64,000 nucleotides of DNA, taken from an uncultured Gemmatimonadota bacterium (GTDB lineage: Bacteria > JAAXHH01). The stretch spans positions 3,648,001 to 3,712,000 of the forward strand of contig OX638340.1 in the NCBI GenBank assembly GCA_951812955.1, in the 5' to 3' direction. Under the pieces are notes generated by a model. That model made no database searches. It had not been told where the DNA came from and saw only the letters and a program-made list of their open reading frames with translations. Position numbers and translations under genes: made by a program. The number at the start of each line of letters is the position of its first letter. Within the stretch, counting starts at the first letter, position 1. Positions 15,376 to 64,000 of the stretch are shown here, one piece after another.

Positions 15376-16209
15376 ATGCCCATTACCGACGCCCTGCCCG
15401 ATATGAAGCGGGAACTTCGTTTTTTTCCGGCAAGATCCGAAAATCCGAAAGCGCTTTCCCGTGAACAGATCGACTTCTTCAACACGAACGGGTATCTGTG
15501 CCCCCTCGATGTATTTACGCCGCGGGAAGCCGAAGCGAACCGCCTGTATTTCGAGGACCTGATGGCCCGTGCAGAGAAGGAAGGGTACAACAGCTACTCC
15601 ATCAACGGCTGGCATCGGCATTGCGAGGGCATCTACAACCTGGCCATGAACGAGAGGATTCTGGACTACGCGGAGGACCTGGTCGGCGAGACGTTGATCT
15701 GCGAGATGACCCACTATTTCTGCAAGATGCCGGGCGACGTGCAGCGGGTGAGCTGGCACCAGGACGCCTCCTACTGGCCTCTGACCCCGAGCAAAGTGGT
15801 GACGATCTGGCTGGCCATAGACGACGTGGACGGGGAAAACGGACCCATGACGGTCATCCCCGGTTCACACCTTCACGGACAAATCCCCTTCGAGAACAGC
15901 ACGAAAGCCGAACGCAACGTGCTGGGACAGTCCGTCCACGACCCGCTCAGGTGGGGTGGCGATCCCGTGCCCTTTACCATGAAGGCGGGCCAGATCTCCA
16001 TGCACACCGACCTGCTGCTGCACGGTTCCGAGCCGAATGTTTCCGACCGCCGCCGCTGCGGACTGACGATACGGTATCTGCCGCCGGACGTCCGGGGCCG
16101 CTACCCGGAATACCACAGGGCCATCATCTGCCGAGGCAGCGATCCCTCGGGTTATTGGAGACCCATACCCCGCCCGACGGGCGACCAGATTCCTCCACGC
16201 AATCGCTAG
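15376..16209 (+). CDS. PhyH family Fe(II)/2OG-dependent oxygenase
   Basis: WHQDASYWPL and IWLAIDDVDGENGPMTVIPGSH motifs. Confidence 0.8.
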   Translation: MPITDALPDMKRELRFFPARSENPKALSREQIDFFNTNGYLCPLDVFTPREAEANRLYFEDLMARAEKEGYNSYSINGWHRHCEGIYNLAMNERILDYAEDLVGETLICEMTHYFCKMPGDVQRVSWHQDASYWPLTPSKVVTIWLAIDDVDGENGPMTVIPGSHLHGQIPFENSTKAERNVLGQSVHDPLRWGGDPVPFTMKAGQISMHTDLLLHGSEPNVSDRRRCGLTIRYLPPDVRGRYPEYHRAIICRGSDPSGYWRPIPRPTGDQIPPRNR

Positions 16210-16295
16210 TATCTACATTGTATCGACGGCGCATTGTCGGTATCTACGGCAAGAGTGGTATCAACGCCGCAATTGTGGTATCTACGGCGCAATAG
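16207..16295. repeat. Tandem array of 4-5 degenerate ~19-20 bp units (consensus about ATTGTnGGTATCTACGGCGC) in a convergent intergenic region
   Basis: Copies of GGTATCnACGGCGC begin at about 16220, 16240, 16259 and 16279, with a partial copy at 16209. Confidence 0.7.
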
Positions 16296-38983: not shown

Positions 38984-40087
38984 TCAGGGCGTTACGATCT
39001 TGACCCGCGTGCTGTCCTTCATGCTTCGGTGCCCGGCGATGACGATCCGGTCACCGGGATTCAGCCCTTCTTCAATCTCTACGAAATCGGCGTCCTGCAA
39101 GCCCAGGCTGAGTTCGGCGCGGACCGCCAGGCTGTCGTCCACCACGGTAAAGACGTTGTTGTCGTCCAGCAAGGCGATCTTGGGAATCAGCAGGACGTCC
39201 ATGTGCTGGTCGGCGAGTATCTTGACGCGGACGAACATGCCGGGTTTCAAACGCCAGCCGGGGTCGTTAATCCGAATCGTTACCTTGAAGGTGCCGTTCT
39301 GCGGGTTGATGATGGGACTTACGCGGAAGATCTTCCCTCCGAATTCACCGTCGGGAAGGGTATCGGTTTCAAGCACGACGTCCTGGCCCGCGGACACGTG
39401 GGCCCACTCCATCTCAGGCAGGTACGTGTAAATCAGCAGGGTGTTCAGATCCACCAGGGTGAAGAGGGCGTCGCCCGTCCTGGCCATGTTGCCCACATTG
39501 AGATGCCGTTCGGTTATCGTGCCGCTGAAAGGAGCCTTGATAGTGGTTTTGTCGTACGACACCTTGGCGGACTCCCAGTCCGCCTGGGCCATGATGTACT
39601 CACGTTCCTTGCCTTCGTGGTCCACTTCGCTGATGAGCTCGCCTTCCAGCAGGGCGACAGACCGGTCGAACTCCTGCTTCCGAGCCTGTCTGATCGCCTC
39701 CGCCCGTGCCAGGGCGACTTCTTCCTCGGCATGTTCCAGGACGGCCAGCGTCTGGCCCTGCTTAACGTGGTCCCCCTCCTGAACCAGGATATTCTCGATC
39801 ATCGCGGTGGTTCGCGGGAATATGCGGGCGTCGCGGTCCGCTTCCACCGTGGCGGTCGTCAGGATGACGTCGGAAATGGTACCCAGGGAAGCGGAAATCA
39901 CGTTCACGGGGACGGGGGGCGGAGCGGTGGAATCCGCCTCGGCCTCGCCTTTCTTGCCTTCGTCCGGGCTATCACCCGTGCCGGAACTGGCGTCGCCGCA
40001 TCCGGAAGCGACGAAGGCCGCGAAGATCACAAGGAGGAACAGCCGGTGTAACTTCATTCCGCTAAGACTGGATCGCATCTGCCTCAT
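38984..40087 (-). CDS. RND efflux periplasmic adaptor subunit (membrane fusion protein, HlyD/AcrA family), probable lipoprotein
   Basis: The signal ..MKLHRLFLLVIFAAFVASGC contains a lipobox. Biotinyl-like beta-barrel and coiled-coil hairpin blocks follow. The ATG at 40087 has AGGGAG upstream; 40057 is an alternative start. Confidence 0.85.
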   Translation of the reverse strand: MRQMRSSLSGMKLHRLFLLVIFAAFVASGCGDASSGTGDSPDEGKKGEAEADSTAPPPVPVNVISASLGTISDVILTTATVEADRDARIFPRTTAMIENILVQEGDHVKQGQTLAVLEHAEEEVALARAEAIRQARKQEFDRSVALLEGELISEVDHEGKEREYIMAQADWESAKVSYDKTTIKAPFSGTITERHLNVGNMARTGDALFTLVDLNTLLIYTYLPEMEWAHVSAGQDVVLETDTLPDGEFGGKIFRVSPIINPQNGTFKVTIRINDPGWRLKPGMFVRVKILADQHMDVLLIPKIALLDDNNVFTVVDDSLAVRAELSLGLQDADFVEIEEGLNPGDRIVIAGHRSMKDSTRVKIVTP

Positions 40088-40139
40088 TTTCGCTCCCTGT
40101 AACAACCTGAATCGACCTCTTGAATTATACGCGAGTCAC

Positions 40140-40260
40140 GTATTGTATACATCATTTAATGACTTCAATTCAAAGGAAGTTCCCGTTAAACTGTACGTAA
40201 GACTTCCGAATGTGGAGTTAAGTTACAGAAAGTTCGGACTTAAACTGTCTGCGCTCCGGA
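40140..40260. promoter_or_regulatory. AT-rich leader upstream of the MFP-RND-RND operon with 9-bp direct repeat TTAAACTGT x2 and a TCCGAA/TTCGGA inverted pair
   Basis: Local G+C is far below the genome background. The direct repeats are at 40186-40194 and 40240-40248. This is a putative promoter/operator; no regulator gene is adjacent. Confidence 0.25.
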
Positions 40261-40476
40261 TTACGCCGCATGTTGTTGGACGGACGGTGTCTTTTTCCGG
40301 TTTACGCTACGGCCAGCCGAGATTCGAAGTACAGGTCCATTACCCGGCGACCGCTGGCGACCTCGGCAGGAACAGCGATGGGGGCGTCGGAAACGTACTC
40401 GCTGGAGTATCAATTCCCGTGGGCAGGCAGGGAAAGAAAAACGCCATCGTCAAGCGCGGCTGAAACGGCACTACCC

Positions 40477-41316
40477 TCATCCGGCCGCCGCCAGCAACCG
40501 CTCCATGTTACCGCCCAGGACGAGGTCCATATCCGCCTTTGCAATGAATGAACAGTGCGTTCGGACGGCTTCCAGCGAATGCTGATAGGTGCTCGCCCGC
40601 GCGACCGGCGGGTAGTTGGACGCCCAGCACATGCGTTCCGGGCCGTAAGCCTCATAGAGCTTGCGTACGATCCACATGCAGTCCGAATAGGGATATTCCC
40701 ACGCGGTCTCCGAGGTGTATTGAAAGCCGGACAGCTTGATGTGGATATTGGGTACGTCAGCGGAGTTCAAAACCTCCTGGAGCAACGGACGCGGCGGAGG
40801 TTCTCCGACCTTCAAACTGGCCATGTGATGGCATAGGAAAGGTACCGTCGGAAACCGGCGCGCGAGCTTTCGCAGGGCGGGCATCCAGGCCGGACTTAGA
40901 GCCAGGGACGCGATCTGGTTGAGTTCGGCAGCTTGCTCGAAAAACGCGAGTCCTTCACTGGATTCGAACCAGTCAAAGTCGTCCCGGAGATAGTGGGTAA
41001 ATCCCTTCAACCGGTATTTTTCGACGGCCTCCGCAAGCCTTCCCGCACCCCCCGGTGTATGGTAGGTGTCGGTCCAGCCGCAGTCCACGTCGGCGAACTG
41101 GACGAACCGGTCCGGGTACCGGCGGACGCAATCCGCCCCGTAGTCGTTGTTCCCGGGATTGTGTTCGATCCGGGCGCAGACCAGCACCGCCTTGTCCACC
41201 CCCACCGTGTCCATTTCATAAAGCAGCATCTCCGCCCGGCCCCGGTTCTCCGGATCCGGGACTGCCGGTTCGTAGGGCCAGAAGTCCCATGCATGGGAAT
41301 GACAGTCGATGATCAT
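40477..41316 (-). CDS. Amidohydrolase-2 family TIM-barrel metal-dependent hydrolase
   Basis: MIIDCHSHAW is a metal-binding His-x-His start. Amidohydro_2 collinearity. Confidence 0.75.
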   Translation of the reverse strand: MIIDCHSHAWDFWPYEPAVPDPENRGRAEMLLYEMDTVGVDKAVLVCARIEHNPGNNDYGADCVRRYPDRFVQFADVDCGWTDTYHTPGGAGRLAEAVEKYRLKGFTHYLRDDFDWFESSEGLAFFEQAAELNQIASLALSPAWMPALRKLARRFPTVPFLCHHMASLKVGEPPPRPLLQEVLNSADVPNIHIKLSGFQYTSETAWEYPYSDCMWIVRKLYEAYGPERMCWASNYPPVARASTYQHSLEAVRTHCSFIAKADMDLVLGGNMERLLAAAG

Positions 41317-41398
41317 GGTTGTATTCTCCTTTGTTCAGGTACGCGCCAAGGGTTTCTGTTGCTTCTGTTCGGGTTTCCGTGGCCGGGGATATCCGTAT

Positions 41399-42283
41399 TC
41401 AATTCCGATTGACTACCCAGAGTCCGGCCGCCAGCAGCGCCAGGCCGCCGGTGAGGTACGTGGTCACCTGGTCGCCGAGGATCAGCCAGCTCAGGAGGAC
41501 GCCGAAAAGGGGTGTCGTGAAGAAAAAAGCGCTGATCTGCGTGGCGCTGTGACGCTGCAGCAGCCGTATCCATACGAGAAAGCAGAAACCGGCCACGATG
41601 GCGCCCTGGTACAGCACCGCGGCTACGATGCCAAGGTCTATCGTGACCGGGAGGTGCCATTCGGTCGATATCCAGAGTATGGTGAATATTGGCAGCACGA
41701 CCACCTGTTGCCAGAAGATCACCGCCACGGGGGAGATGCGCCTGACCAGCACCTTGTTGATCATGATCTGGATGGCCAGGCTGACGGAGCTGAGCAGGAC
41801 AAGCACATCGCCCAGGGGTGTCGAAGGACCGCCCGCTTCATCATAAATGGTCAACACCATGCCGCCGCCGGCCAGGACCAGGCCGACAAGCTTCATCGGT
41901 GTCAGGCGATCGCCTGGAATGATGAAATGAGCGATCCCGGCGACGACGAACGGGTAGGTCTGCATAAACAGGACGGCGTGGCTTCCCGAGGTCTGTTCCG
42001 CGCCGATATTCAGGAACAGGATCTGCGCGGCCATGACGAGGGCGGGCACGGCGATGATCAGGCGGTCGCCCCGTGCCACGTAGAGCGAGACGCCGGCCAG
42101 CCGCGTCCACGTGTAGACGCACACCAGGGCTACGCCGAATCGCAAGACCGCCAGGAGGACCGGCGGGATGCCCTCCAGCCCCACTTTTACCGACACGACC
42201 AGGCCGCCCCAGAGCGTACACAGCATCAGTACGAGCAGCACGGGTCTCGTAGTCAGCGGCTGGTTTTCGTCGATATGGCTCAC
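41399..42283 (-). CDS. DMT-superfamily (EamA-type) transporter
   Basis: 10 TM helices in two EamA repeats. The start at 42283 is a GTG. Confidence 0.8.
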   Translation of the reverse strand: MSHIDENQPLTTRPVLLVLMLCTLWGGLVVSVKVGLEGIPPVLLAVLRFGVALVCVYTWTRLAGVSLYVARGDRLIIAVPALVMAAQILFLNIGAEQTSGSHAVLFMQTYPFVVAGIAHFIIPGDRLTPMKLVGLVLAGGGMVLTIYDEAGGPSTPLGDVLVLLSSVSLAIQIMINKVLVRRISPVAVIFWQQVVVLPIFTILWISTEWHLPVTIDLGIVAAVLYQGAIVAGFCFLVWIRLLQRHSATQISAFFFTTPLFGVLLSWLILGDQVTTYLTGGLALLAAGLWVVNRN

Positions 42284-42368
42284 CCGGGCCGGCCTTTTGC
42301 GGGAGGTAGACAGCGAGAGGAAACGGCAGGGCGTGATTATACGGCCTCAGAATGCATGGAGGCAATGT

Positions 42369-43418
42369 TTAAGTTCGGGGCCGGGCATCCATGCGCTGGA
42401 AACGCAGGGCCACGTTGACCAGCGCGATCATGACCGGTACTTCAACGAGCGGGCCGATGACGGCCGCGAAGGCCACGCCTGATTCGATGCCGAAGACCGC
42501 CACGGCCACCGCGATGGCCAGTTCGAAGTTATTGCTTGCGGCGGTGAAAGAGAGCGTGGCGTTCTTCGAATAGTCCGCGCCGATCTTCCGTCCCATCCAG
42601 AAGGTGATCAGGAACATGAGCACGAAATAGACCAGGAGGGGCAGGGCGATGCGGATCACGTCCAGTGGGATGGCCACGATCGTGTCGCCCTTCAGGCTGA
42701 ACATGACCACGATGGTGAACAGCAACGCGGCCAGGGTAATGGGGCTGATGCGGGGTATGAAGGCCGTCTCGTACCACGGCCTCCCCTTGATCCGCAGCAG
42801 GATCAGGCGCGTCGCCATGCCGCCGAAGAACGGGATGCCCAGGTAGATCAAAACGCTTTCCGCGATCTGTACGATCGTAACCGGAACGACACTCCCCTCC
42901 AGTCCGAAATAGGGCGGCAGGACCGTAATGAAGACGTAGGCGTACACGCTGTAGAAGAACACCTGGAACAGGCTGTTCAAGGCTACGAGGCCGGCGGCGT
43001 ACTCCGTGTTTCCCTTCGCCAGTTCGTTCCACACGATGACCATGGCGATGCACCGGGCCAGGCCGATCAGGATCAGGCCGGTCATGTATTCGGGATGTCC
43101 GGGCAGGAAGAGCGCCGCGAGACCGAACATCAGTATGGGGCCCACGATCCAGTTCAGGAAAAGGGACGCGCCGAGGATCCGCACGTTTCGGAACACGTCC
43201 CCCAATTCCTCGTACTTCACCTTGGCCAGCGGTGGATACATCATCAGAATGAGCCCGATAGCGATAGGCAGGTTGGTCGTGCCCACCTGTCCCAGCTGGA
43301 TCAGGGCGGGAACCTCCGGCGTCCACACCCCGAGGCCGACGCCCAGGCCCATGGCCAGGAAGATCCACAGGGTCAGGTAACGATCGCGCAACGATAGTCG
43401 TTTCGTCGTGGATTCCAT
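42369..43418 (-). CDS. acr3: ACR3-family arsenite efflux permease
   Basis: 349 aa, collinear with ACR3/ArsB-type BART-superfamily carriers (..LAKVKYEEL..). It is the terminal gene of the arsR-arsC-acr3 operon. Confidence 0.85.
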
Positions 43419-43462
43419 TTTTACTCTCTGGTTGATTTCCTAAGAGGACCTATGCCTGTCTT

Positions 43463-43620
43463 GTGCGATGAACCGTATACGCGTCATGATGAACGATATA
43501 GGCGTCATGATGAACGATATAGGCGTCATGATGAACGATATAGGCGTCATGATGAACGATATAGGCGTCATGATGAACGATATAGGCGTCATGATGAACG
43601 ATATAGGCGTCATGCGATCC
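43463..43620. repeat. Perfect 21-bp tandem repeat (GCGTCATGATGAACGATATAG x6, plus degenerate flanking copies) between arsC and acr3
   Basis: Six identical units at 43481-43606, a degenerate copy upstream, and a partial copy that overlaps the arsC stop codon. The nearest edge of the array is ~45 bp upstream of the acr3 ATG. Confidence 0.95.
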
Positions 43621-44263
43621 CGACCCGCTTGAACAGCCAACCCATCTCCCGACTGATCTCCCGGCATCGTTCGTCGTATATGTCAGTCTCCCGGTCCGTT
43701 CCGTCGGAGGACCTCGGATCTTTGTAGGGAATGAGTATACGTTTGTCGGCGCCGTATACCGCGGGACAGTTGCGGTCCGCGTCCGAACAGGTCAGGACCG
43801 CGCAGAAACGGTCCGGGGGGTTCGCGGGATCCAGGAAAGTCTTGGAGAACGCGCGCACCGGGGAAAGTTCTGCCCCGGGATGGACGAGGTAGACCGGGTT
43901 TTCTCCTGTCGAGTTTCGTTCGATCCGAAAACCCGCCCGGACCAGCGCCGATACGGCCCTCGGATCGAAAGCGGAGACTTCGGTGCCGCCCGAGAAGGCG
44001 GATATCATCGGTACGCCGAGAAAGCGCGCCATGGTCTGTGCCCAGATCTGCGCAATCTGACTCCTGCGGGAATTGTGGGTACAGATAAAGGTGAGCCGGG
44101 CCGGTTCGCCGCTTCCGATCTTCGCCGAGGCGTATGCAGCAACGGATTCCAGCTCCTTCCTTCGTTCTGTAGAGATCAGGCTGGATTCCGCCATGCGGGC
44201 CTTGAGATAGCGATGGAGGGCCGGGTACAAGGTGGTACAGGTATCGTGAGGGGGCGGTCTCAT
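43610..44263 (-). CDS. arsC: LMW-PTP-family thioredoxin-coupled arsenate reductase (ArsC) with variant P-loop and N-terminal extension
   Basis: The P-loop is CTHNSRRS (CX5R retained; canonical CTGNSCRS). The Cys82/Cys89-equivalent pair LTCSDADRNCP matches B. subtilis TLCGDAADKCP. The ATG at 44263 overlaps the arsR stop by an ATGA. Confidence 0.7.
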   Translation of the reverse strand: MRPPPHDTCTTLYPALHRYLKARMAESSLISTERRKELESVAAYASAKIGSGEPARLTFICTHNSRRSQIAQIWAQTMARFLGVPMISAFSGGTEVSAFDPRAVSALVRAGFRIERNSTGENPVYLVHPGAELSPVRAFSKTFLDPANPPDRFCAVLTCSDADRNCPAVYGADKRILIPYKDPRSSDGTDRETDIYDERCREISREMGWLFKRVGIA

Positions 44264-44688
44264 CGCTCCTCCCGCGAAAGCATGGACCGGTCGAAAAAAG
44301 CCGGATCTTCCCGGTCGTCTGCCTGGAGTTGGGCCAAGGAGGGCTGAGGCACGCAGATTTTGCCTTCACCGGCCAGTCCGCGCAACCGGTCCAGGTCCGC
44401 CAGGATCCGTTCGTGTACCTGCCGGGCGGAGACCAGGTAAACCGTCACGTATTTCAGGGCGATGGAAGAGTCTCTGGCCAGCGCGTAGTAGATCCAGACT
44501 CCGTCGCGGCGGCCCGTGAGCAGACCGGACTGCTTGAGCACGGCCAGGTGCCGGGAGATTTTGCCCTGGGGCATATCCAGCACGGCCATGATTTCGCACA
44601 CGCACAGTTCCCGCTCGGTCAGCAGGAACAGGATGCGGAGGCGCGTGGCGTCCGAACAGGCTTTGAATACGGCAAGATCGTTGTCCAA
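44260..44688 (-). CDS. arsR: ArsR/SmtB-family metalloregulatory repressor
   Basis: As(III)-site ELCVCEI motif within the wHTH. TTG start with GGAGACAGG upstream. Confidence 0.8.
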   Translation of the reverse strand: MDNDLAVFKACSDATRLRILFLLTERELCVCEIMAVLDMPQGKISRHLAVLKQSGLLTGRRDGVWIYYALARDSSIALKYVTVYLVSARQVHERILADLDRLRGLAGEGKICVPQPSLAQLQADDREDPAFFDRSMLSREER

Positions 44689-44731
44689 ATTCCTGTCTCC
44701 GATGCTGAAAGAAAGGATTATATCTTCATAA

Positions 44732-44754
44732 ACGAATATACGAATATAGATCTA
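44732..44754. promoter_or_regulatory. Candidate ArsR operator: 9-bp direct repeat ACGAATATA x2 overlapping the perfect 10-bp palindrome ATAGATCTAT
   Basis: Sits in the AT-rich 190 bp divergent spacer, 45-65 bp upstream of the arsR start. Confidence 0.3.
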
Positions 44755-44876
44755 TTTGTCAAGGGAAATGAAGCGATCGGTAATCGCCGGTATCGGTGGA
44801 CACCCGGCAACGCATGTTGTATATTAAGGAAGTCATTTGCGGGATCAACTCGATGTACGCTACACCCTGGAGAATC

Positions 44877-46349
44877 ATGCCGTCCCGTCCCCATGTCCTT
44901 CTCGTCTGTACCGATCACTGGCCGGGCAGGCTGTTCGGCCACGCGGGTCATCCGGTGGTCCAGACTCCGACCCTGGATACCCTCGCGCGCAGCGGTGTCC
45001 GGTATACCCGGGCCTACAGCGAATGTCCGGTGTGCATTCCCGCGCGAAGGACGCTCATGACCGGCACGACCACGGCCACACACGGCGACCGGGTGTTCAA
45101 GGTCGATGACCCCATGCCTCGGGTCCCGACCCTGGCACAGACCTTTCGGGACAACGGCTACCAGGCCTACGCGGTTGGCAAACTGCACGTGTACCCGCAG
45201 CGGGACCGGATCGGGTTCGACGACGTGGTCCTGGCGGAGGAAGGCCGTCCGAATATCGGCGCCCTGGACGATTACGAGGCCTTTCTCGGGGAAAGCGGAT
45301 ACGCCGGGGAGGGATTCACGCACGGCATGAGCAACAACGAGTACGGCCAACGTCCCTGGCACTTGCCCGAGGCCATGCACGTGACCAACTGGAACACGCG
45401 CCAGATGGCCCGTATGATACGCCGGCGCGATCCCACCCGGCCGGGGTTCTGGTACCTGTCCTACTGCCATCCCCATCCCCCGCTGACTCCGCTACAATGC
45501 TACCTGGACCTCTACCGCGACGAGCACCCAGGTGAGCCGTACTGCGGCGACTGGGCACGGGACCCCGACAGCCTGCCATATGCGCTGAAGGCGGTCCAGG
45601 GAAGATTCGGGGGCATGAGTGATGCCCAGGTCGCCTGGGCAAGACGGGCATTCTACGCCCTGTGCACCCATATAGACCACCAGCTGCGCGTGGTGATCGG
45701 CACGTTGCGGGAGGAAGGCCTGATAGACGACACGATCGTGCTCTTCACGGCCGACCACGGCGACATGCTGGGCGTCCACGGACTGTGGGCAAAGCGGCTT
45801 TACTACGAGCAATCCGCCAACGTGCCCATGATACTCGTGGCCCCGGCCGGCGACGACCGGGTCGGACACAACCGCGCGGACGGACGGCTCGTAGGCTGGC
45901 AGGACGTAATGCCCACGCTGCTGGACCTCGCGGGGCTCGATGTCCCGGATACGGTCGATGGCCTCTCCATGGCGGGCGAAGAGAAACGGGAATACCTGTA
46001 CGGAGAGTGCGGCGAAAACGCCCAGGCCACCCGCATGATGCATGACGGCCGGTACAAGCTGATCTATTACCCGGTGGGCAACCGTACACAGATGTTCGAC
46101 CTCGAGGAAGACCCGGACGAATGCCGCGATCTGTCCGAGTCGAACGACCACGCCCCAATCCTGCGCCGGCTTACGAAGCGGCTGGTGGATGAGATGGCCG
46201 ACCTGGATCCGGCGTGGTTCCGGGACGGACAACTGACCGGCCTGCCGGACCGCGAATACACGCTGCCGCCCAACCGGGGCCTGTCCGGCCAGCGGGGACT
46301 GCACTGGCCGCCGCCACCCATGGATCCGGGGTCGTCCTACGTCCCCTGA
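44877..46349 (+). CDS. Formylglycine-dependent sulfatase (arylsulfatase/choline-sulfatase family)
   Basis: LLVCTDHW at the N-terminus and C-x-P-x-R in SECPVCIPARRTLMTG, followed by ..LFTADHGDMLG... The ATG at 44877 has GGAGA 5 nt upstream. Confidence 0.85.
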   Translation: MPSRPHVLLVCTDHWPGRLFGHAGHPVVQTPTLDTLARSGVRYTRAYSECPVCIPARRTLMTGTTTATHGDRVFKVDDPMPRVPTLAQTFRDNGYQAYAVGKLHVYPQRDRIGFDDVVLAEEGRPNIGALDDYEAFLGESGYAGEGFTHGMSNNEYGQRPWHLPEAMHVTNWNTRQMARMIRRRDPTRPGFWYLSYCHPHPPLTPLQCYLDLYRDEHPGEPYCGDWARDPDSLPYALKAVQGRFGGMSDAQVAWARRAFYALCTHIDHQLRVVIGTLREEGLIDDTIVLFTADHGDMLGVHGLWAKRLYYEQSANVPMILVAPAGDDRVGHNRADGRLVGWQDVMPTLLDLAGLDVPDTVDGLSMAGEEKREYLYGECGENAQATRMMHDGRYKLIYYPVGNRTQMFDLEEDPDECRDLSESNDHAPILRRLTKRLVDEMADLDPAWFRDGQLTGLPDREYTLPPNRGLSGQRGLHWPPPPMDPGSSYVP

Positions 46350-54638: not shown

Positions 54639-56063
54639 TTAGAGCCGCTTCTCTTTGGCTATTTCCTCGATGGCGCCGATGAACTGGTCGGTCTGGGCAT
54701 CGGTCACCATGACGTGCATCGACGTCCGGTTGGCGTCCCAGTTGATCTCGTCGTGGGTGACGTTCCGGATGTAAATACGGTGGCGTTCCCACAGTGTGTT
54801 GTTCAGGTCTCGGGTACTCACGCCACTGACCTTGAACGATACCAGCGCGGCACTCATGCGCGGGTCCGGCGAACTGTAGACGTCGACACCGTCCATGTTG
54901 CGCAGGGCGTTGGCTACCCGTGTGGCCTGGTGGCGGTTCCGGCTTTCGATGGCCGCCGGACCGATCATGTTGTGGAAGTCCAACGCGGCGTCGATGGCGA
55001 CGCGCGCCGGGGCGTTCGAGGAACCCCGCAACTCGAACTTGGCAGCTCCCGCCAGGTATTCGTCGTAGTACACCTTGGCGAAGCCCGTGGGTTCCAGACC
55101 GTACATGGTGAGTCCGTTCACGGGGCCGGAATACAGGGTCGGCCACACACGGTCCACGATGTCCTCTTTCACGTAGAAGAAACCGGTGTACATGGAGGCC
55201 ATCATCCACTTGTGACACGGACCCGCGTACATGTCGCAACTCAGGTCGTGCATGTCGAGGTCGAGCATGCCCGGCGGTTGCGCCCCGTCTACCAGGGTCA
55301 GGATGCCCTTGGACCGGGCCATCTCACAGATTTCCTTCACGGGAAGGACCAGGCCGTCGCCGTAATTGACATGGCAGAAGCTGAGCAGCTTCGTCCGCGG
55401 CGTGATGGCGGCCTCGAAGGCCTTCAGCAGCATATCGGGATTGTCGGGCGGATGGAAATCCGGGGAGGACAGGTCGATCATCACGGTCTTCGTCCCCTGC
55501 CGTGCCGCCCGGAGATTGATAGGCTGAACTCCGCTGGAGTGATCGTGGTTGGTCGTCACGATCTCGTCGCCCGGTTCCATGTCGATACCGAATGTGCCGA
55601 AGTTCATGCCCTCGGTCGTATTGTTTGTGAAGGCGACCTCGTTCGACTTGCAGCCGATGTACTTCGCCATCTTATTGCGCATATTCGTCCGGAAGTCGCT
55701 GTTGTAGACGTAACTGGTGTAGCTCTTGTAGTTCGAGTTCGCGCCTTCCATCGCGGCGACCTGCGCCCTGTGCACCGGACCGGGGGACGGTCCGCGCGTA
55801 CCGGTGTTCATGTAGGACACGCCATCGCGGATGATGAACTGGTCGGCCACCCAGTTCCAGTACGCCACGTCATCGGGTTCCGGAAGATGGTCTTCGGGTA
55901 TAGGCGGCTTGGCCCCGGCTTTTCCGGCCATGGACAGCAATGCGGTTCCCGCGGCGAGCCCTCCAGCGATTCGACCGATGAAACCTCGCCGGGACAGTGC
56001 TTTCAGCTTTTCCGAATCTTCGTATTTCGGGTCGAAATTTAAACCGGTCTCTTCCGTAATCAT
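54639..56063 (-). CDS. Class V PLP aminotransferase-fold enzyme (cysteine-desulfurase / isopenicillin-N-epimerase-like) with Tat signal peptide
   Basis: Tat motif LSRRGFIGRIAGGLAAGTALLSMAGKAGA. Class V blocks follow, with the PLP-Lys in ..YAGPCHKWMM... I trimmed the start to the ATG at 56063, which has GGGAGA upstream. Confidence 0.75.
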   Translation of the reverse strand: MITEETGLNFDPKYEDSEKLKALSRRGFIGRIAGGLAAGTALLSMAGKAGAKPPIPEDHLPEPDDVAYWNWVADQFIIRDGVSYMNTGTRGPSPGPVHRAQVAAMEGANSNYKSYTSYVYNSDFRTNMRNKMAKYIGCKSNEVAFTNNTTEGMNFGTFGIDMEPGDEIVTTNHDHSSGVQPINLRAARQGTKTVMIDLSSPDFHPPDNPDMLLKAFEAAITPRTKLLSFCHVNYGDGLVLPVKEICEMARSKGILTLVDGAQPPGMLDLDMHDLSCDMYAGPCHKWMMASMYTGFFYVKEDIVDRVWPTLYSGPVNGLTMYGLEPTGFAKVYYDEYLAGAAKFELRGSSNAPARVAIDAALDFHNMIGPAAIESRNRHQATRVANALRNMDGVDVYSSPDPRMSAALVSFKVSGVSTRDLNNTLWERHRIYIRNVTHDEINWDANRTSMHVMVTDAQTDQFIGAIEEIAKEKRL

Positions 56064-56293
56064 GGTGTATCTCCCAAGTGATGCCTCCGGCGCGCTCATG
56101 CAGTTAAACCGGTGTAGGCCACCGCGGCAGACCGTGCCAGGGGATCTGGAAATAAGGCTATTGTAGCGAGAATCTGTAAAGAGAGTATACAGGGCACCGA
56201 AGGGGGACTTCAAGTAAAAACTGCATTTCACGGGATTTGCGGCCGGATGGTTCCGATTTCTGGTTGCGGGGTGCCGGAAACTCCGCTTACTTG

Positions 56294-56391
56294 ATAGGTG
56301 CCTGTTCGATCTTCAAAGGCAATTCCATCGGGGATAGCTGGATATAGTTGCCCGTTCGATTTTCGAGTGTAGTTCTATCGGGGAAAGCTCG
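56294..56391. repeat. Imperfect ~48-50 bp direct repeat x2 in a 430 bp divergent intergenic region
   Basis: ATAGGTGCCTGTTCGATCTTCAAAGGCAATTCCATCGGGGATAGCTGG at 56294-56341, and ATATAGTTGCCCGTTCGATTTTCGAGTGTAGTTCTATCGGGGAAAGCTCG at 56342-56391. Confidence 0.7.
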
Positions 56392-56492
56392 ATTCGACCG
56401 CTCCGAGCCGGAAGGCAAGTGCATACAGTCCAGGGGCGACTACCAGTCACCGGCCGCCCATATCCGCCGCGAAGCCAGAAAGGGTATGCTAC

Positions 56493-57620
56493 GTGAAAAT
56501 CGAAGACATCGCCTCGTATTTCATCGGAGGCGGGTACGTCATCCGCATCCGGACCGACAGCGGCCTCACCGGGGTGGGCCAGACCGCCTGCTGGGGATAT
56601 CCGGAAGCCGTACACCAGATCGTTGAGCGGTTCAAAGACTACCTGGTGGGACAGGACCCCTTCCGCATCGAGCATCACTGGCAGTACCTCTACCGCATGT
56701 CGCCCTTCCGGGGAAGCGCCTTGTCCGGTGCGGTCAGCGCCGTCGATATCGCCCTGTGGGATATAAAGGGGAAGCACTTCGGCATACCGATCTGGGAGTT
56801 GCTCGGCGGGAATTGCAGGGATAGAGTCAGGCTTCATCTGCTGGGTGGCGGCGGCACCCCGGAGGCCATGTACGAATCCGCGCGCAACGCGGCGTCGGAG
56901 GGCTTCACGGCGCTCAAGTTCGATCCCCTGCCGGGCGGCTACCAGGACATGGCCCTGGACCGGATGATACGTACCGCCCGGGATCTCGTCGCGGCAGCCC
57001 GGGACGGCGGCGGCCCGGACATGGATCTCATCGTGGAGGTCCACCGCAAGTTGACCCCGTTGACCGCCATGCCACTGGCCAACGCCCTGACCGAATTCAA
57101 CCTCTATTTCATCGAGGATCCCATCCAGATCGACAGCATCATGGCCCAGGGCGAAATCGCGCGGCGGATCGGTATCCCCGTCGGGAACGGGGAACGCCTG
57201 AACACCATTTGGGAATTCCAGGAACTCCTGGCCCACGGCGGACCGCAATACGTGCGGCCGGACGTGGCCCTGGCGGGCGGCCTGACGCACTGCAAGAAGA
57301 TCGCCGCCATTGCCGAGGCCCATCACTGCGCCGTCGTCACCCACAATTTCCTGACGCCCCTCATCACCGCCGCTTCCGTTCACCTGGACACCTGCATACC
57401 GAACTTCGTGACGCAGGAGTACAGCATGGGGGACGAATCGGAGGCCAGCACGGTGTACCGGACCAACATCCGGCGGGAAGGCGGGTACATACCGATTCCC
57501 CGCGATCCGGGCCTGGGTGTCGAACTGGATGACGAATTGCTGGCCGGCGCGGCGTTTTCGCCAATGAATACCGCGAATACGTTGCTCAGGTCGGACGGTT
57601 CGGTGGCCAACTCGGTCTAA
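56493..57620 (+). CDS. Enolase-superfamily enzyme (mandelate racemase / muconate lactonizing enzyme / D-galactonate-dehydratase-like)
   Basis: Capping domain (..VDIALWDIKGK..) and TIM-barrel metal ligands (..KFDP.., ..FIEDP.., ..GERL..). GTG start at 56493. Confidence 0.8.
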   Translation: MKIEDIASYFIGGGYVIRIRTDSGLTGVGQTACWGYPEAVHQIVERFKDYLVGQDPFRIEHHWQYLYRMSPFRGSALSGAVSAVDIALWDIKGKHFGIPIWELLGGNCRDRVRLHLLGGGGTPEAMYESARNAASEGFTALKFDPLPGGYQDMALDRMIRTARDLVAAARDGGGPDMDLIVEVHRKLTPLTAMPLANALTEFNLYFIEDPIQIDSIMAQGEIARRIGIPVGNGERLNTIWEFQELLAHGGPQYVRPDVALAGGLTHCKKIAAIAEAHHCAVVTHNFLTPLITAASVHLDTCIPNFVTQEYSMGDESEASTVYRTNIRREGGYIPIPRDPGLGVELDDELLAGAAFSPMNTANTLLRSDGSVANSV

Positions 57621-61557: not shown

Positions 61558-62400
61558 TCACGACCGGGATACATCCGCTTCGGCGAAGGCGTTCGCCAGG
61601 GTCCGGTAACATAGGGCGGCCGCTTCGAAGGGGTCGTAACCGGGATGTCTCTGCACCATGTGACTGACCTCCGCCGTGATGGATCCCGTGTACCCGGCTG
61701 CGTGCATGGCGCGCAGGTAGGTCACGAAATCGAAATCGCCCTCGCCGGGCACAAGAAACTCGAAATCCGGGACACGGCCGCGCTGGTCCTTGACGTGGGT
61801 ATGGACCGCGTAGGGGGCCATGAGCCGGACCGCCTCCTCGATGGACATACCCAGGACGTCGAAGTGGCTGATGTCGAAATTGAGCCCCAGGTAGGGGGAG
61901 CTCATCGTCTCCACGAGTTGGACGGACTTCTGCGCGGTGTCCAGGGCGGAGCCGACGTGGGCCTCCATCCCGATCACGACTTCACGTGCGGCGGCGTAAT
62001 CCAGCAGTTCCCGGACCCGTTCGAGGATGAAATCCAGCCTGGGTTCCCAGTCTTCAGGCGCGCCGCCCAACACGGTGTCCAGGACCGGCATGCCGCGGCC
62101 GTCGCTCCACTCGGCGCACAGGTCGACGGCCTGTTTCAGCACGCGCATGTTCTCGCGGTGCGCATCGGGATCCTCGTCGAGCAGCGAGCGGTGGGCGGCA
62201 ACGGCGGGCATGTCAAGGCCGTACTGTTGAAAGATCCGCTTGATCCGTCGCCGTTCATCGGAGTCCAGCCGGTCCGCGGCCGTCGTATAGTTTGGGAGCA
62301 CCGTCAATTCGACGGCGTCGAATCCCTGTTCGCTCAGGAACGACAGGGCCTGGTCCACGGGGACGCTGGGCATGCCCCAGGTGGTGTAGCCTATCTGCAT
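61558..62400 (-). CDS. Sugar-phosphate isomerase/epimerase (xylose-isomerase-like TIM barrel)
   Basis: Begins MQIGYTTWGM, with ..ELTV.. and metal ligands in ..HVKD... The start is taken at the ATG at 62400, so the 42-bp duplication is excluded from the CDS. Confidence 0.75.
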   Translation of the reverse strand: MQIGYTTWGMPSVPVDQALSFLSEQGFDAVELTVLPNYTTAADRLDSDERRRIKRIFQQYGLDMPAVAAHRSLLDEDPDAHRENMRVLKQAVDLCAEWSDGRGMPVLDTVLGGAPEDWEPRLDFILERVRELLDYAAAREVVIGMEAHVGSALDTAQKSVQLVETMSSPYLGLNFDISHFDVLGMSIEEAVRLMAPYAVHTHVKDQRGRVPDFEFLVPGEGDFDFVTYLRAMHAAGYTGSITAEVSHMVQRHPGYDPFEAAALCYRTLANAFAEADVSRS

Positions 62401-62448
62401 GGGTCGGTACTTTCTGGCCGTGTTGTAGTCGATACGCGAATTCGCCAG

Positions 62449-62532
62449 CCCCGCCGGGTCGATTCTCCGCCTCGTCAACCCGGTAGTGCGCCCCGCCGGG
62501 TCGATTCTCCGCCTCGTCAACCCGGTAGTGCG
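62449..62532. repeat. Perfect 42-bp tandem duplication (CCCCGCCGGGTCGATTCTCCGCCTCGTCAACCCGGTAGTGCG x2) in the 5' leader / intergenic region
   Basis: Two identical copies at 62449-62490 and 62491-62532. Confidence 0.95.
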
Positions 62533-62556
62533 GTCCGCCCTGCCCGGCCGATTTAA

Positions 62557-63465
62557 CTATAGCATGTCGCGGCCGGTAAGAAACGCCTTGAGCTGCTCCA
62601 TCTCTTCGTCCGTAAGATCGGGCAGGGGGCTTCTCCGCCAGCGGCCGCAGATTCCCGCCAGTTCCAGGACGGCGTGCTGGGCTGCGTCCCCGCCGGCCGG
62701 AAAGGCGCTGTACAGGTAATCGAACAATGGCATGTCGTAGCGCGCGATGATGTCTACGGCCGAATCGAGGTCTTTTTTCTCAATGGCGGACGAGTAGGCG
62801 CGGGCTACTTCGGGCTTGAACTTGATGAAGGTGGACATGTACCCATCGCAGCCGTAGGGCAGCATGTCCATGTGGGTCTGCTTCTGGCCGCCCGCGAAGA
62901 TCACCCATTTTTCGTGGGCTCTAACACAGGCACCCCGCGCGAAATCCGGGCCGAAGTCTTCCTTGAATCCCACGACCCCGGGCACCTCGTCCAGGAGCCG
63001 TTCGACCGTTTCGAGCGCGCCCCGGACGCCCACGCTCACCAGCCCGGCGCTCAGGATGAACGCCGGAAGGGCCTGCGACACCGCGCCGTAATACGCCACG
63101 AGCCCATCCACCGTCATGCCGCGGTCGGGAGGCGCCACGATCAACGCGTCCGCTCCGCAGTCCCGGGCGTACTCCGCGAAGCCCGCGGTCTGTTTCGTGG
63201 ACCAGAACCCCGCGCTCGCGATGAACAGCGCCCGTCCGTTGACGACGCGGGCGGTAAACTCCGTCATCTCGGCGATCTCCGCCTCGGTCAGCAACGAATA
63301 GAGACTGTCCCCCGGGGTGAACAGTACGGTTCCCGCACCGGAATCGATGCAGAAATCCACGAACCGGCGTAACCCGGCGTAATCGATGCCGTCATGCTCG
63401 AGAAAAGGCGTGTTGATCGAGGCGACCGGGCCGGCCAGGTGGTGACGGAAACGGTCTGTATCCAT
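62557..63465 (-). CDS. DapA-family (dihydrodipicolinate synthase / N-acetylneuraminate-lyase-like) class I aldolase/lyase
   Basis: DHDPS-family collinearity with the Schiff-base Lys region (..VVGFKEDFG..). ATG at 63465. Confidence 0.75.
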   Translation of the reverse strand: MDTDRFRHHLAGPVASINTPFLEHDGIDYAGLRRFVDFCIDSGAGTVLFTPGDSLYSLLTEAEIAEMTEFTARVVNGRALFIASAGFWSTKQTAGFAEYARDCGADALIVAPPDRGMTVDGLVAYYGAVSQALPAFILSAGLVSVGVRGALETVERLLDEVPGVVGFKEDFGPDFARGACVRAHEKWVIFAGGQKQTHMDMLPYGCDGYMSTFIKFKPEVARAYSSAIEKKDLDSAVDIIARYDMPLFDYLYSAFPAGGDAAQHAVLELAGICGRWRRSPLPDLTDEEMEQLKAFLTGRDML

Positions 63466-63466
63466 C

Positions 63467-64000
63467 CTATGTCCGCCCTTCAGCTGACCAGGAGTCGAAG
63501 GGGTTGCCGTTTTCAGCGAGGGGAAAAGCGACCCGCGCACCCGTGATGTGGGAAAGATGCGCGCCCATGGCCATCTCGATATGTCGGCGGGCCGTGCGCG
63601 CATGGCAAAGTTCGTATTCGGGTTCCCTGCCCTCGATGAGATCCATCATGGACCTCGCCATGCGGTGATGGGCGTTGATCCATTTCTGCCCGCCCGAAAC
63701 CTGTTCGTGGGCGAGCACTTCCCATCGATCGTCGTCGAAGGGCCGCGGGTTCGAGTGGGGATGGAAATAGATATCCGGACCATCCTGCGTGGGGCCGGGC
63801 AGGATGAGCGTCCCGGCGGTCCCGTGGATATCGATGCGATAGGGATTCTCGATACCGTCACCCGCGAAGGATTCGAACTCAGCGTTGAATCCGTCGAACT
63901 GGTAATGCGCCCATATGCCGTTTCCCGCGGAGGTGCCCATGCCGAACAGGCCTTCCTTCCGGTCGATCGGTCCGGCCGTCCGGCCGTCCTGCGTGATGAT
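63467..64000 (-). CDS. Gfo/Idh/MocA-family oxidoreductase, C-terminal part; the gene begins beyond the window end
   Basis: The C-terminal alpha/beta domain ..WAHYQFDGF..GTAGTL.. is typical of the family. The stop lies 1 bp upstream of the DapA-like start, consistent with an operon. Confidence 0.6.
   Translation of the reverse strand: MITQDGRTAGPIDRKEGLFGMGTSAGNGIWAHYQFDGFNAEFESFAGDGIENPYRIDIHGTAGTLILPGPTQDGPDIYFHPHSNPRPFDDDRWEVLAHEQVSGGQKWINAHHRMARSMMDLIEGREPEYELCHARTARRHIEMAMGAHLSHITGARVAFPLAENGNPFDSWSAEGRT

Follow-up and report, generated by a model that had tools for sequence, protein, structure and literature searches.

A probable locus-specific minisatellite in the arsC-acr3 spacer of an uncultured Gemmatimonadota bacterium and its probable recent expansion

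Bacterial VNTR or minisatellite loci are tandem arrays of repeats of roughly 10 to 100 bp that are used for MLVA typing. Contingency repeats usually have units of 1 to 9 nt that lie in open reading frames (ORFs) or between promoter hexamers, and each step in their copy number switches expression. The mycobacterial MIRUs are portrayed in two articles (PMC3184786 and PMC12548453) as intercistronic elements of 40 to 100 bp that occur at ~40 to 50 loci per genome, are thought to insert as mobile elements (Supply et al. 1997, via these articles), stand in tandem in variable number, and carry an ORF coupled to the neighboring gene by a 4-nt overlap. The REP/BIME elements of enterobacteria are G+C-rich, form stable stems, and are dispersed in hundreds of copies (Higgins et al. 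1982 and Stern et al. 1988, as cited in PMC3184786). Here, we describe a tandem array of 21-nt units between arsC and acr3 in a 64-kb stretch of DNA from an uncultured Gemmatimonadota bacterium, the whole of which we call the window (Table 1). Quite likely, the array is a minisatellite (VNTR) specific to this locus that lies in a presumably transcribed spacer of the arsR-arsC-acr3 operon, has expanded recently, and most likely has a small effect.

Table 1. Features of the ars operon and its repeat array, with positions in the window.
Feature	Position	Strand	Remarks
Promoter-like site TTGACA-16-TATATT	44735..44762	minus	upstream of arsR; 11/12 consensus positions
arsR	44260..44688	minus	ArsR/SmtB model matches; first operon gene; stop overlaps arsC start
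arsC-like gene, 217 aa	43610..44263	minus	stop TGA 43610-43612
Mini-ORF, 57 codons, putative	43440..43613	minus	3' part of mechanical ORF 43440-43667
Six identical 21-nt units	43488..43613	minus	transcribed-strand sequence ATGACGCCTATATCGTTCATC
Terminal unit, ancestral 23-nt type	43465..43487	minus	transcribed strand ATGACGCGTATACGGTTCATCGC; 3 mismatches to the 21-nt unit
Shine-Dalgarno-like AGAGAG	43424..43429	minus	5 nt upstream of acr3 ATG, read from sequence
acr3, arsenite efflux transporter	42369..43418	minus	TIGR00832, 450 bits (cutoff 282.8)
EamA-family transporter gene	41399-42283	minus	downstream of acr3

The product of the arsC-like gene scores under the Pfam and TIGRFAM cutoffs; by its sequence, it reads as a distant homologue of the low-molecular-weight phosphatase-type arsenate reductases. 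In an alignment with the ArsC of B. subtilis (1JL3; E = 9e-8), both the CX5R loop and the C-X6-C pair are in register. Full-length homologues of this protein have 213 to 250 aa, and the length of ~217 aa is kept. Its N-terminal extension of ~55 aa is conserved in the clade and absent from solved ArsC structures. ArsC evolves faster than Acr3 by far in this clade, with amino acid identities of 68% to 91% compared to 91% to 98%, both at a four-fold-site identity of 0.70 to 0.93. On the minus strand, a promoter-like TTGCCT-18-TATAAT (42336-42365; 10/12 consensus positions) directly follows the stop of acr3 and precedes the EamA gene, which may have a promoter of its own.

Tandem Repeats Finder places the array at the top of all tandem repeats in the window (43467-43614, period 21, 7.0 copies, 97% matches without indels, score 275). 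Scanning the whole 64 kb with the pattern GATGAACGATATAGGCGTCAT and up to 3 mismatches returned the six exact copies listed in Table 1 and one 3-mismatch copy at 43467-43487, with zero further matches anywhere else in the window, and none of 100 dinucleotide-preserving shuffles matched. The first-pass annotation of this DNA had described six identical 21-bp units with degenerate edge copies; both searches agree with the identity of the inner copies and reveal one diverged copy at the acr3-proximal end, whereas there is none at the arsC end. This terminal unit is also the top match in the window of a covariance model built from 13 units (33.9 bits, E = 2.8e-7; scanned with filters off). The model found no further unit in the 64-kb window, nor did it match anything beyond the spacer in 91 kb from related loci, which brings the DNA searched to ~155 kb, and the exact 20-mer occurs a single time in the contigs of a related metagenome-assembled genome (MAG). 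With no second site in the DNA searched, the repeat does not behave there as a dispersed element of the generic REP kind. The array had further been said to begin at the arsC stop codon and to end ~45 bp before acr3, which agrees with our coordinates: the TGA is part of the ATGA of the first transcribed unit (43593-43613), resulting in an AUGA overlap, and 46 to 48 nt separate the array end (43465/43467) from the acr3 ATG (43418). Each unit is an imperfect palindrome, ATGA-N12-TCAT, in 21-bp phase, and the perfectly periodic part of the array measures 134 bp.

A scan of a collection of genomes and metagenomes with the 20-mer retrieved two orthologous loci, the MAG "Gemmatimonadetes bacterium APA_bin_41" (L001) and MKWU01000410.1 (L005). 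Searching for ArsC homologues and the contigs encoding them added 11 more distinct contigs (L020 is the same contig as L008), for a total of 13 orthologous contigs from related Gemmatimonadota assemblies with 83% to 98% nucleotide identity to the window. Every contig of sufficient length shows the same synteny of TauE, S1-P1 nuclease, and sulfatase genes followed divergently by arsR-arsC-acr3-EamA-amidohydrolase. The 20-mer matches L002, L003, and L004 are single units within unrelated sequence and therefore chance matches, and a scan of viral contigs with the ancestral pattern likewise gave six single matches in unrelated ORF-like contexts that we attribute to chance. Read on the transcribed strand, the orthologous arsC-acr3 spacers contain two units in L001 and L005 (one of 21 nt and one of 23 nt; ~98% identity to the window), two 23-nt units in L008 and L019 (96%, measured for L008 only), one 23-nt unit in L006 and L007 (95%), three 23-nt units in L009 (93%), three units in L018 (91%), two in L010 (89%), one in L011, L012/13, and L014/15 (~83%), and none that is recognizable in L016/17 (~83%). 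The copy number at this one orthologous site is therefore not invariant but 1, 2, or 3 in syntenic spacers compared to 7 in the window, in line with the VNTR or slipped-strand hot spot that the first-pass annotation had considered. Its proposal of a recent expansion fares equally well: in a global alignment, the spacers of the window and L005 differ by a single gap of exactly 105 nt (5 x 21), and five of the six 21-nt units of the window are missing from both L001 and L005. The identity of the window to these two loci falls from ~98% on the acr3 side (39500-43200) to ~93% to 95% on the arsC/arsR/sulfatase side (43600-45200), a step located right at the array, where recombination may have left a boundary in the repeat or close to it.

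The orthologue series appears to be a clean natural record of the birth of a minisatellite. Judging from the unit types in the spacers of the relatives, the ancestral unit has 23 nt, ATGACGCC-N5-GGYTCAYCGC, with the arsC stop as its invariable starting point. In the window, the 21-nt unit corresponds to the first unit of the L001/L005 allele, i.e., the 23-mer minus its terminal GC and with two substitutions, and thus seems to be a derived form of the older 23-nt unit, a point that is absent from the first-pass annotation. The starting state would have been a single 23-nt segment at the arsC stop codon with GCAT at both ends. Such a unit is preserved in the single-unit allele of L006, where it is flanked by GCATGA and GCATAA, and this short direct repeat GCAT(G/A)A may have given slippage its foothold. 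Duplication would then have created the two to three diverged units of several relatives. In the lineage of the window, the first unit would have lost 2 nt, leaving a multiple of three, and this 21-nt unit would have multiplied until six identical copies stood where there had been one, with slipped-strand mispairing in replication as the most plausible cause. Because the acr3 side of the window is so similar to that of L001 and L005, the burst is probably recent and would postdate the split from these strains.

The phantom MTPISFI-repeat ORF pointed out in the first-pass annotation is present as a mechanical ORF, and its 3' part forms the mini-ORF of Table 1. The start AUG of this mini-ORF overlaps the arsC stop, all units are in frame, giving (MTPISFI)x6 and then MTRIRFIAQDRHRSS, and the stop UAG at 43442-43440 lies 21 nt before the acr3 ATG. 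All orthologues share an overlap of the arsC stop with a start codon (GUGA in L011 and L016, otherwise AUGA), and each duplicated unit copies this stop/start junction. The 23-nt units are thereby read as successive ORFs of 8 codons (MTPxWFIA* type) that each end on the next AUGA or UUGA; as 21 is a multiple of three, the 21-nt units fuse into one ORF of 57 codons. Where the ORF ends relative to acr3 differs among the orthologues: it stops 40 nt upstream in L006 and enters acr3 in frame in L009. Free initiation at the internal AUGs of the array is unlikely since no purine-rich Shine-Dalgarno sequence precedes them. Reinitiation into the array is conceivable because every unit copies the AUGA overlap, and termination-reinitiation at the first AUGA would be a plausible, modified form of the "decoy start codon" idea raised earlier. 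The array is presumably cotranscribed with the operon, ribosomes finishing arsC could reinitiate and read through it, and its translation would keep the long spacer covered by ribosomes. The array RNA is unstructured, with C/G = 1.75 and 26 YC dimers in 149 nt, and one may speculate that such C-rich, G-poor RNA could attract Rho if left untranslated. The mini-peptide itself does not seem to be under selection, as variation in the unit alignment does not fall on third codon positions. We also rejected stop read-through, or a SECIS-like hairpin after the UGA: the spacer contains stops in L010 and L012 and is out of frame in the window, L008, and L011, with L006 and L009 having it in frame and free of stops.

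The Shine-Dalgarno-like AGAGAG probably provides acr3 with a ribosome binding site (RBS) of its own, and it reads CCAGAGAG or CCGGAGAGG in most orthologues and GAGCG in L006/L007 and L016/L017. When 0 to 12 units were modelled in silico, the SD-AUG region of acr3 kept a mean unpaired probability of 0.55 to 0.59, and the whole arsC-acr3 junction folds at -54.5 kcal/mol with z = +0.64, i.e., no better than shuffles. A tuning of acr3 translation through RNA structure, which the first-pass annotation had envisaged, thus finds no support in the predicted folds. Given this predicted accessibility, which does not depend on copy number, and the separate RBS, any effect of the array on expression would most likely be small, and the negative results point to near-neutrality. 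Just upstream of the acr3 Shine-Dalgarno site, a stretch at 43431-43451 (GGTCCTCTTAGGAAATCAACC in the window, AGTCCACCACGNAATCAAC in L006 and L016) surpasses the repeat unit in its conservation across the L016 lineage (~83% identity), and it is present in L016 even though this contig has no unit.

Conservation of the unit itself gives a similar picture. Unit identity between genomes is 0.65 to 0.96 compared to 0.70 to 0.93 at four-fold degenerate sites of arsC and acr3, values at which synonymous sites are far from saturated. With these levels about equal and one lineage (L016/17) devoid of the unit, purifying selection on the unit as a whole finds no support. In the 23-nt unit, the arms are conserved a little better than synonymous sites (typically 16/18 compared to about 0.73) and the loop varies, so that some constraint on the ancestral unit, as RNA hairpin or DNA palindrome, is conceivable. 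Its persistence at one spot across genomes down to ~83% identity could mean that it is either tolerated or useful.

Several other explanations have to be weighed against this reading. The seven-copy allele is known from one assembly and more than three units occur only there, so the count could be an assembly artefact hiding a true allele with another number of units, e.g., two. Look-ups of the window's ArsC and Acr3 returned no identical protein elsewhere, which leaves the strain with this single assembly, and the 134-bp periodic stretch is expected to form a loop in k-mer graphs for k up to ~113 and may be resolved unreliably by short-read de Bruijn assemblers. However, independent assemblies, including contigs of 3.9 Mb, confirm both the repeat, at two or more units, and its variability, the flanks of the array are clean and unique, and the number of units is integral. 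Assemblers, moreover, usually collapse tandem repeats and rarely expand them, and we consider an artefact unlikely. At the DNA level, the palindromes at 21-bp phase (two helical turns) could be phased sites for ArsR or another dimeric regulator, iterons, or an internal acr3 promoter, and a protein-binding array was among the options of the first-pass annotation. Yet the unit bears no likeness to the inverted repeat that is conserved upstream of arsR in nine loci, an AT-rich motif of the ATATCCTTAT-N8-ATTAGGATAT type in distant relatives that overlaps the arsR promoter-like site and is the likely candidate for the ArsR operator. No sigma-70-like promoter or intrinsic terminator was found in or beside the array on either strand by a scan that recovers the arsR promoter. 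Helical phasing is not conserved, since the units of the relatives have a 23-bp period and are thus out of helical phase, and L016/L017 lack the unit. Iterons are further disfavored by the lack of a replication gene nearby and by the chromosomal position of the locus, which is syntenic in 3.9 Mb contigs. Taken together, we regard binding sites of any of these kinds as extremely unlikely. In the arsR upstream region itself (44728-44762), the window holds an 8-bp tandem, ATATACGA x2.6. A unit-like fragment near the arsR promoter, ATGAAGATATA, was also tried as a link to the ArsR operator and discarded, as orthologues have ATATAGATATA or ATTAGGATATA in its place.

At the RNA level, the unit could be a functional, REP-like stem-loop straddling the arsC stop, i.e., an mRNA stabilizer or processing mark that the array multiplies. 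Together with the preceding GC, the ancestral 23-nt unit is predicted to fold into GC-AUGA-c-GCC / 5-nt loop / GGC-UCAU-c-GC, a stem of 9 bp that is interrupted by two bulges. Its predicted energies range from -6.6 to -10.4 kcal/mol, and the best z-score is -2.6. In the 13-unit alignment, 89.7% of cells are paired compared to ~30% to 43% in slid registers, all five one-sided changes preserve G-U or G-C pairing on the sense strand, and conserved arms enclose a variable loop. However, the same alignment has no compensatory double changes and no pairing measure above shuffles, pairs are broken in several units (e.g., u1 and u2 of L018, u2 and u3 of L009, and u1 of L010), the arms barely exceed the synonymous level, and the L016/L017 orthologues manage without the unit. 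Little of the hairpin is left in the expanded 21-nt unit (-2.9 kcal/mol, z about 0), and the array is no stabler than shuffles. The stem also lacks a U-tract behind it, and the scan for terminators gave no candidate site. Rfam 15 contains no family that reaches its gathering score in our search, with two chance-level matches of 13 to 14 bits (E > 1). A functional stem-loop therefore seems quite unlikely to us. A copy-number rheostat, by which the array would set acr3 output relative to arsC and its variation would be selected as at a contingency locus, could operate either through a longer untranslated, C-rich, G-poor, and unstructured spacer that invites attack by Rho or RNases or through a coupled mini-ORF that delivers ribosomes to the acr3 start or withholds them. 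Such a device would be consistent with the copy number differences among close relatives, the composition of the array RNA, the AUGA-type overlap at the arsC stop of all orthologues, and a frame-preserving unit whose ORF stops 21 nt before the acr3 ATG; short coupled ORFs are discussed as ribosome-delivery devices, with MIRUs as an example, in PMC12548453. Against it stand the Shine-Dalgarno site of acr3 with its predicted accessibility constant from 0 to 12 copies, the variable coupling geometry in L006 and L009, and the internal AUGs without purine-rich sequences upstream; moreover, any duplication of the arsC stop region automatically places an AUGA at each junction. We rate a rheostat as rather unlikely, and a change of the ArsC:Acr3 ratio with copy number, which would amount to tunable stoichiometry within a resistance operon, is something that nothing we found argues for. 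It is more improbable still that the array is a miniature MIRU counterpart outside mycobacteria, in which a "stop-start" cassette of AUGA and a short ORF would duplicate itself and thereby determine how many ribosomes or how much intact mRNA gets to acr3; if this were true, strains would have heritable and quickly adjustable levels of arsenite efflux.

As a minisatellite, the locus is a ready strain marker for these uncultured Gemmatimonadota, with alleles of 1, 2, 3, and 7 units and flanks that are highly conserved, and its value is mainly of this practical kind. Assembly and annotation call for caution here, as the array gives rise to a phantom ORF of 75 aa and could break or mis-size short-read contigs. 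The window contains further tandem repeats. At 62448-62539, a 42-bp unit with a TTGACG motif inside is tandemly duplicated (2.2 copies, 96% identity) between the co-oriented minus-strand ORFs 62557-63603 and 61558-62520. A degenerate 20-bp array at 16220-16293 (3.8 copies of GTATCTACGGCGCAATTGTG, 73% matches) directly follows the stop of the plus-strand ORF 15376-16209 in a convergent intergenic gap and could be a set of binding sites. Finally, a 50-bp unit is present twice at 56294-56393 (78% identity) across the gap between the minus-strand ORFs 54639-56231 and 56313-57383, extending into the 3' end of the latter.

Compared to the known systems, the arsC-acr3 array is not a REP element, contingency repeat, operator array, or iteron set. 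It shares with contingency loci the slipped-strand mechanism and a variable copy number beside an adaptive gene, but its 21-nt unit is a multiple of three and lies outside ORFs and promoter hexamers, with no evident switch. Like REP/BIME elements, it consists of short imperfect palindromes in tandem in a transcribed intercistronic spacer with a possible mRNA stem-loop, yet its hairpin is weak and without covariation, and it is not dispersed in the ~155 kb examined. In its working, the array appears most similar to the mycobacterial MIRUs without being a member of this family: it lies in sense orientation in the spacer of co-oriented operon genes with no promoter or terminator between them, and the small sense ORF of the unit starts with a 4-nt overlap (AUGA) on the stop of the upstream gene. 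Unlike MIRUs, its unit has only 21 to 23 nt, occupies one locus in the ~155 kb searched, and would stem from local duplication of the arsC stop region rather than from insertion, and its mini-ORF does not overlap the acr3 start but ends 21 nt short of it in the window and at varying distances in relatives. The array most likely belongs to the bacterial VNTRs or minisatellites: units of at least ~10 bp stand head to tail with identical inner copies and a diverged edge copy, their number varies at one orthologous site between conserved flanks, and replication slippage is the expected mechanism. What distinguishes it from other VNTR loci is its place within the ars operon of uncultured Gemmatimonadota.
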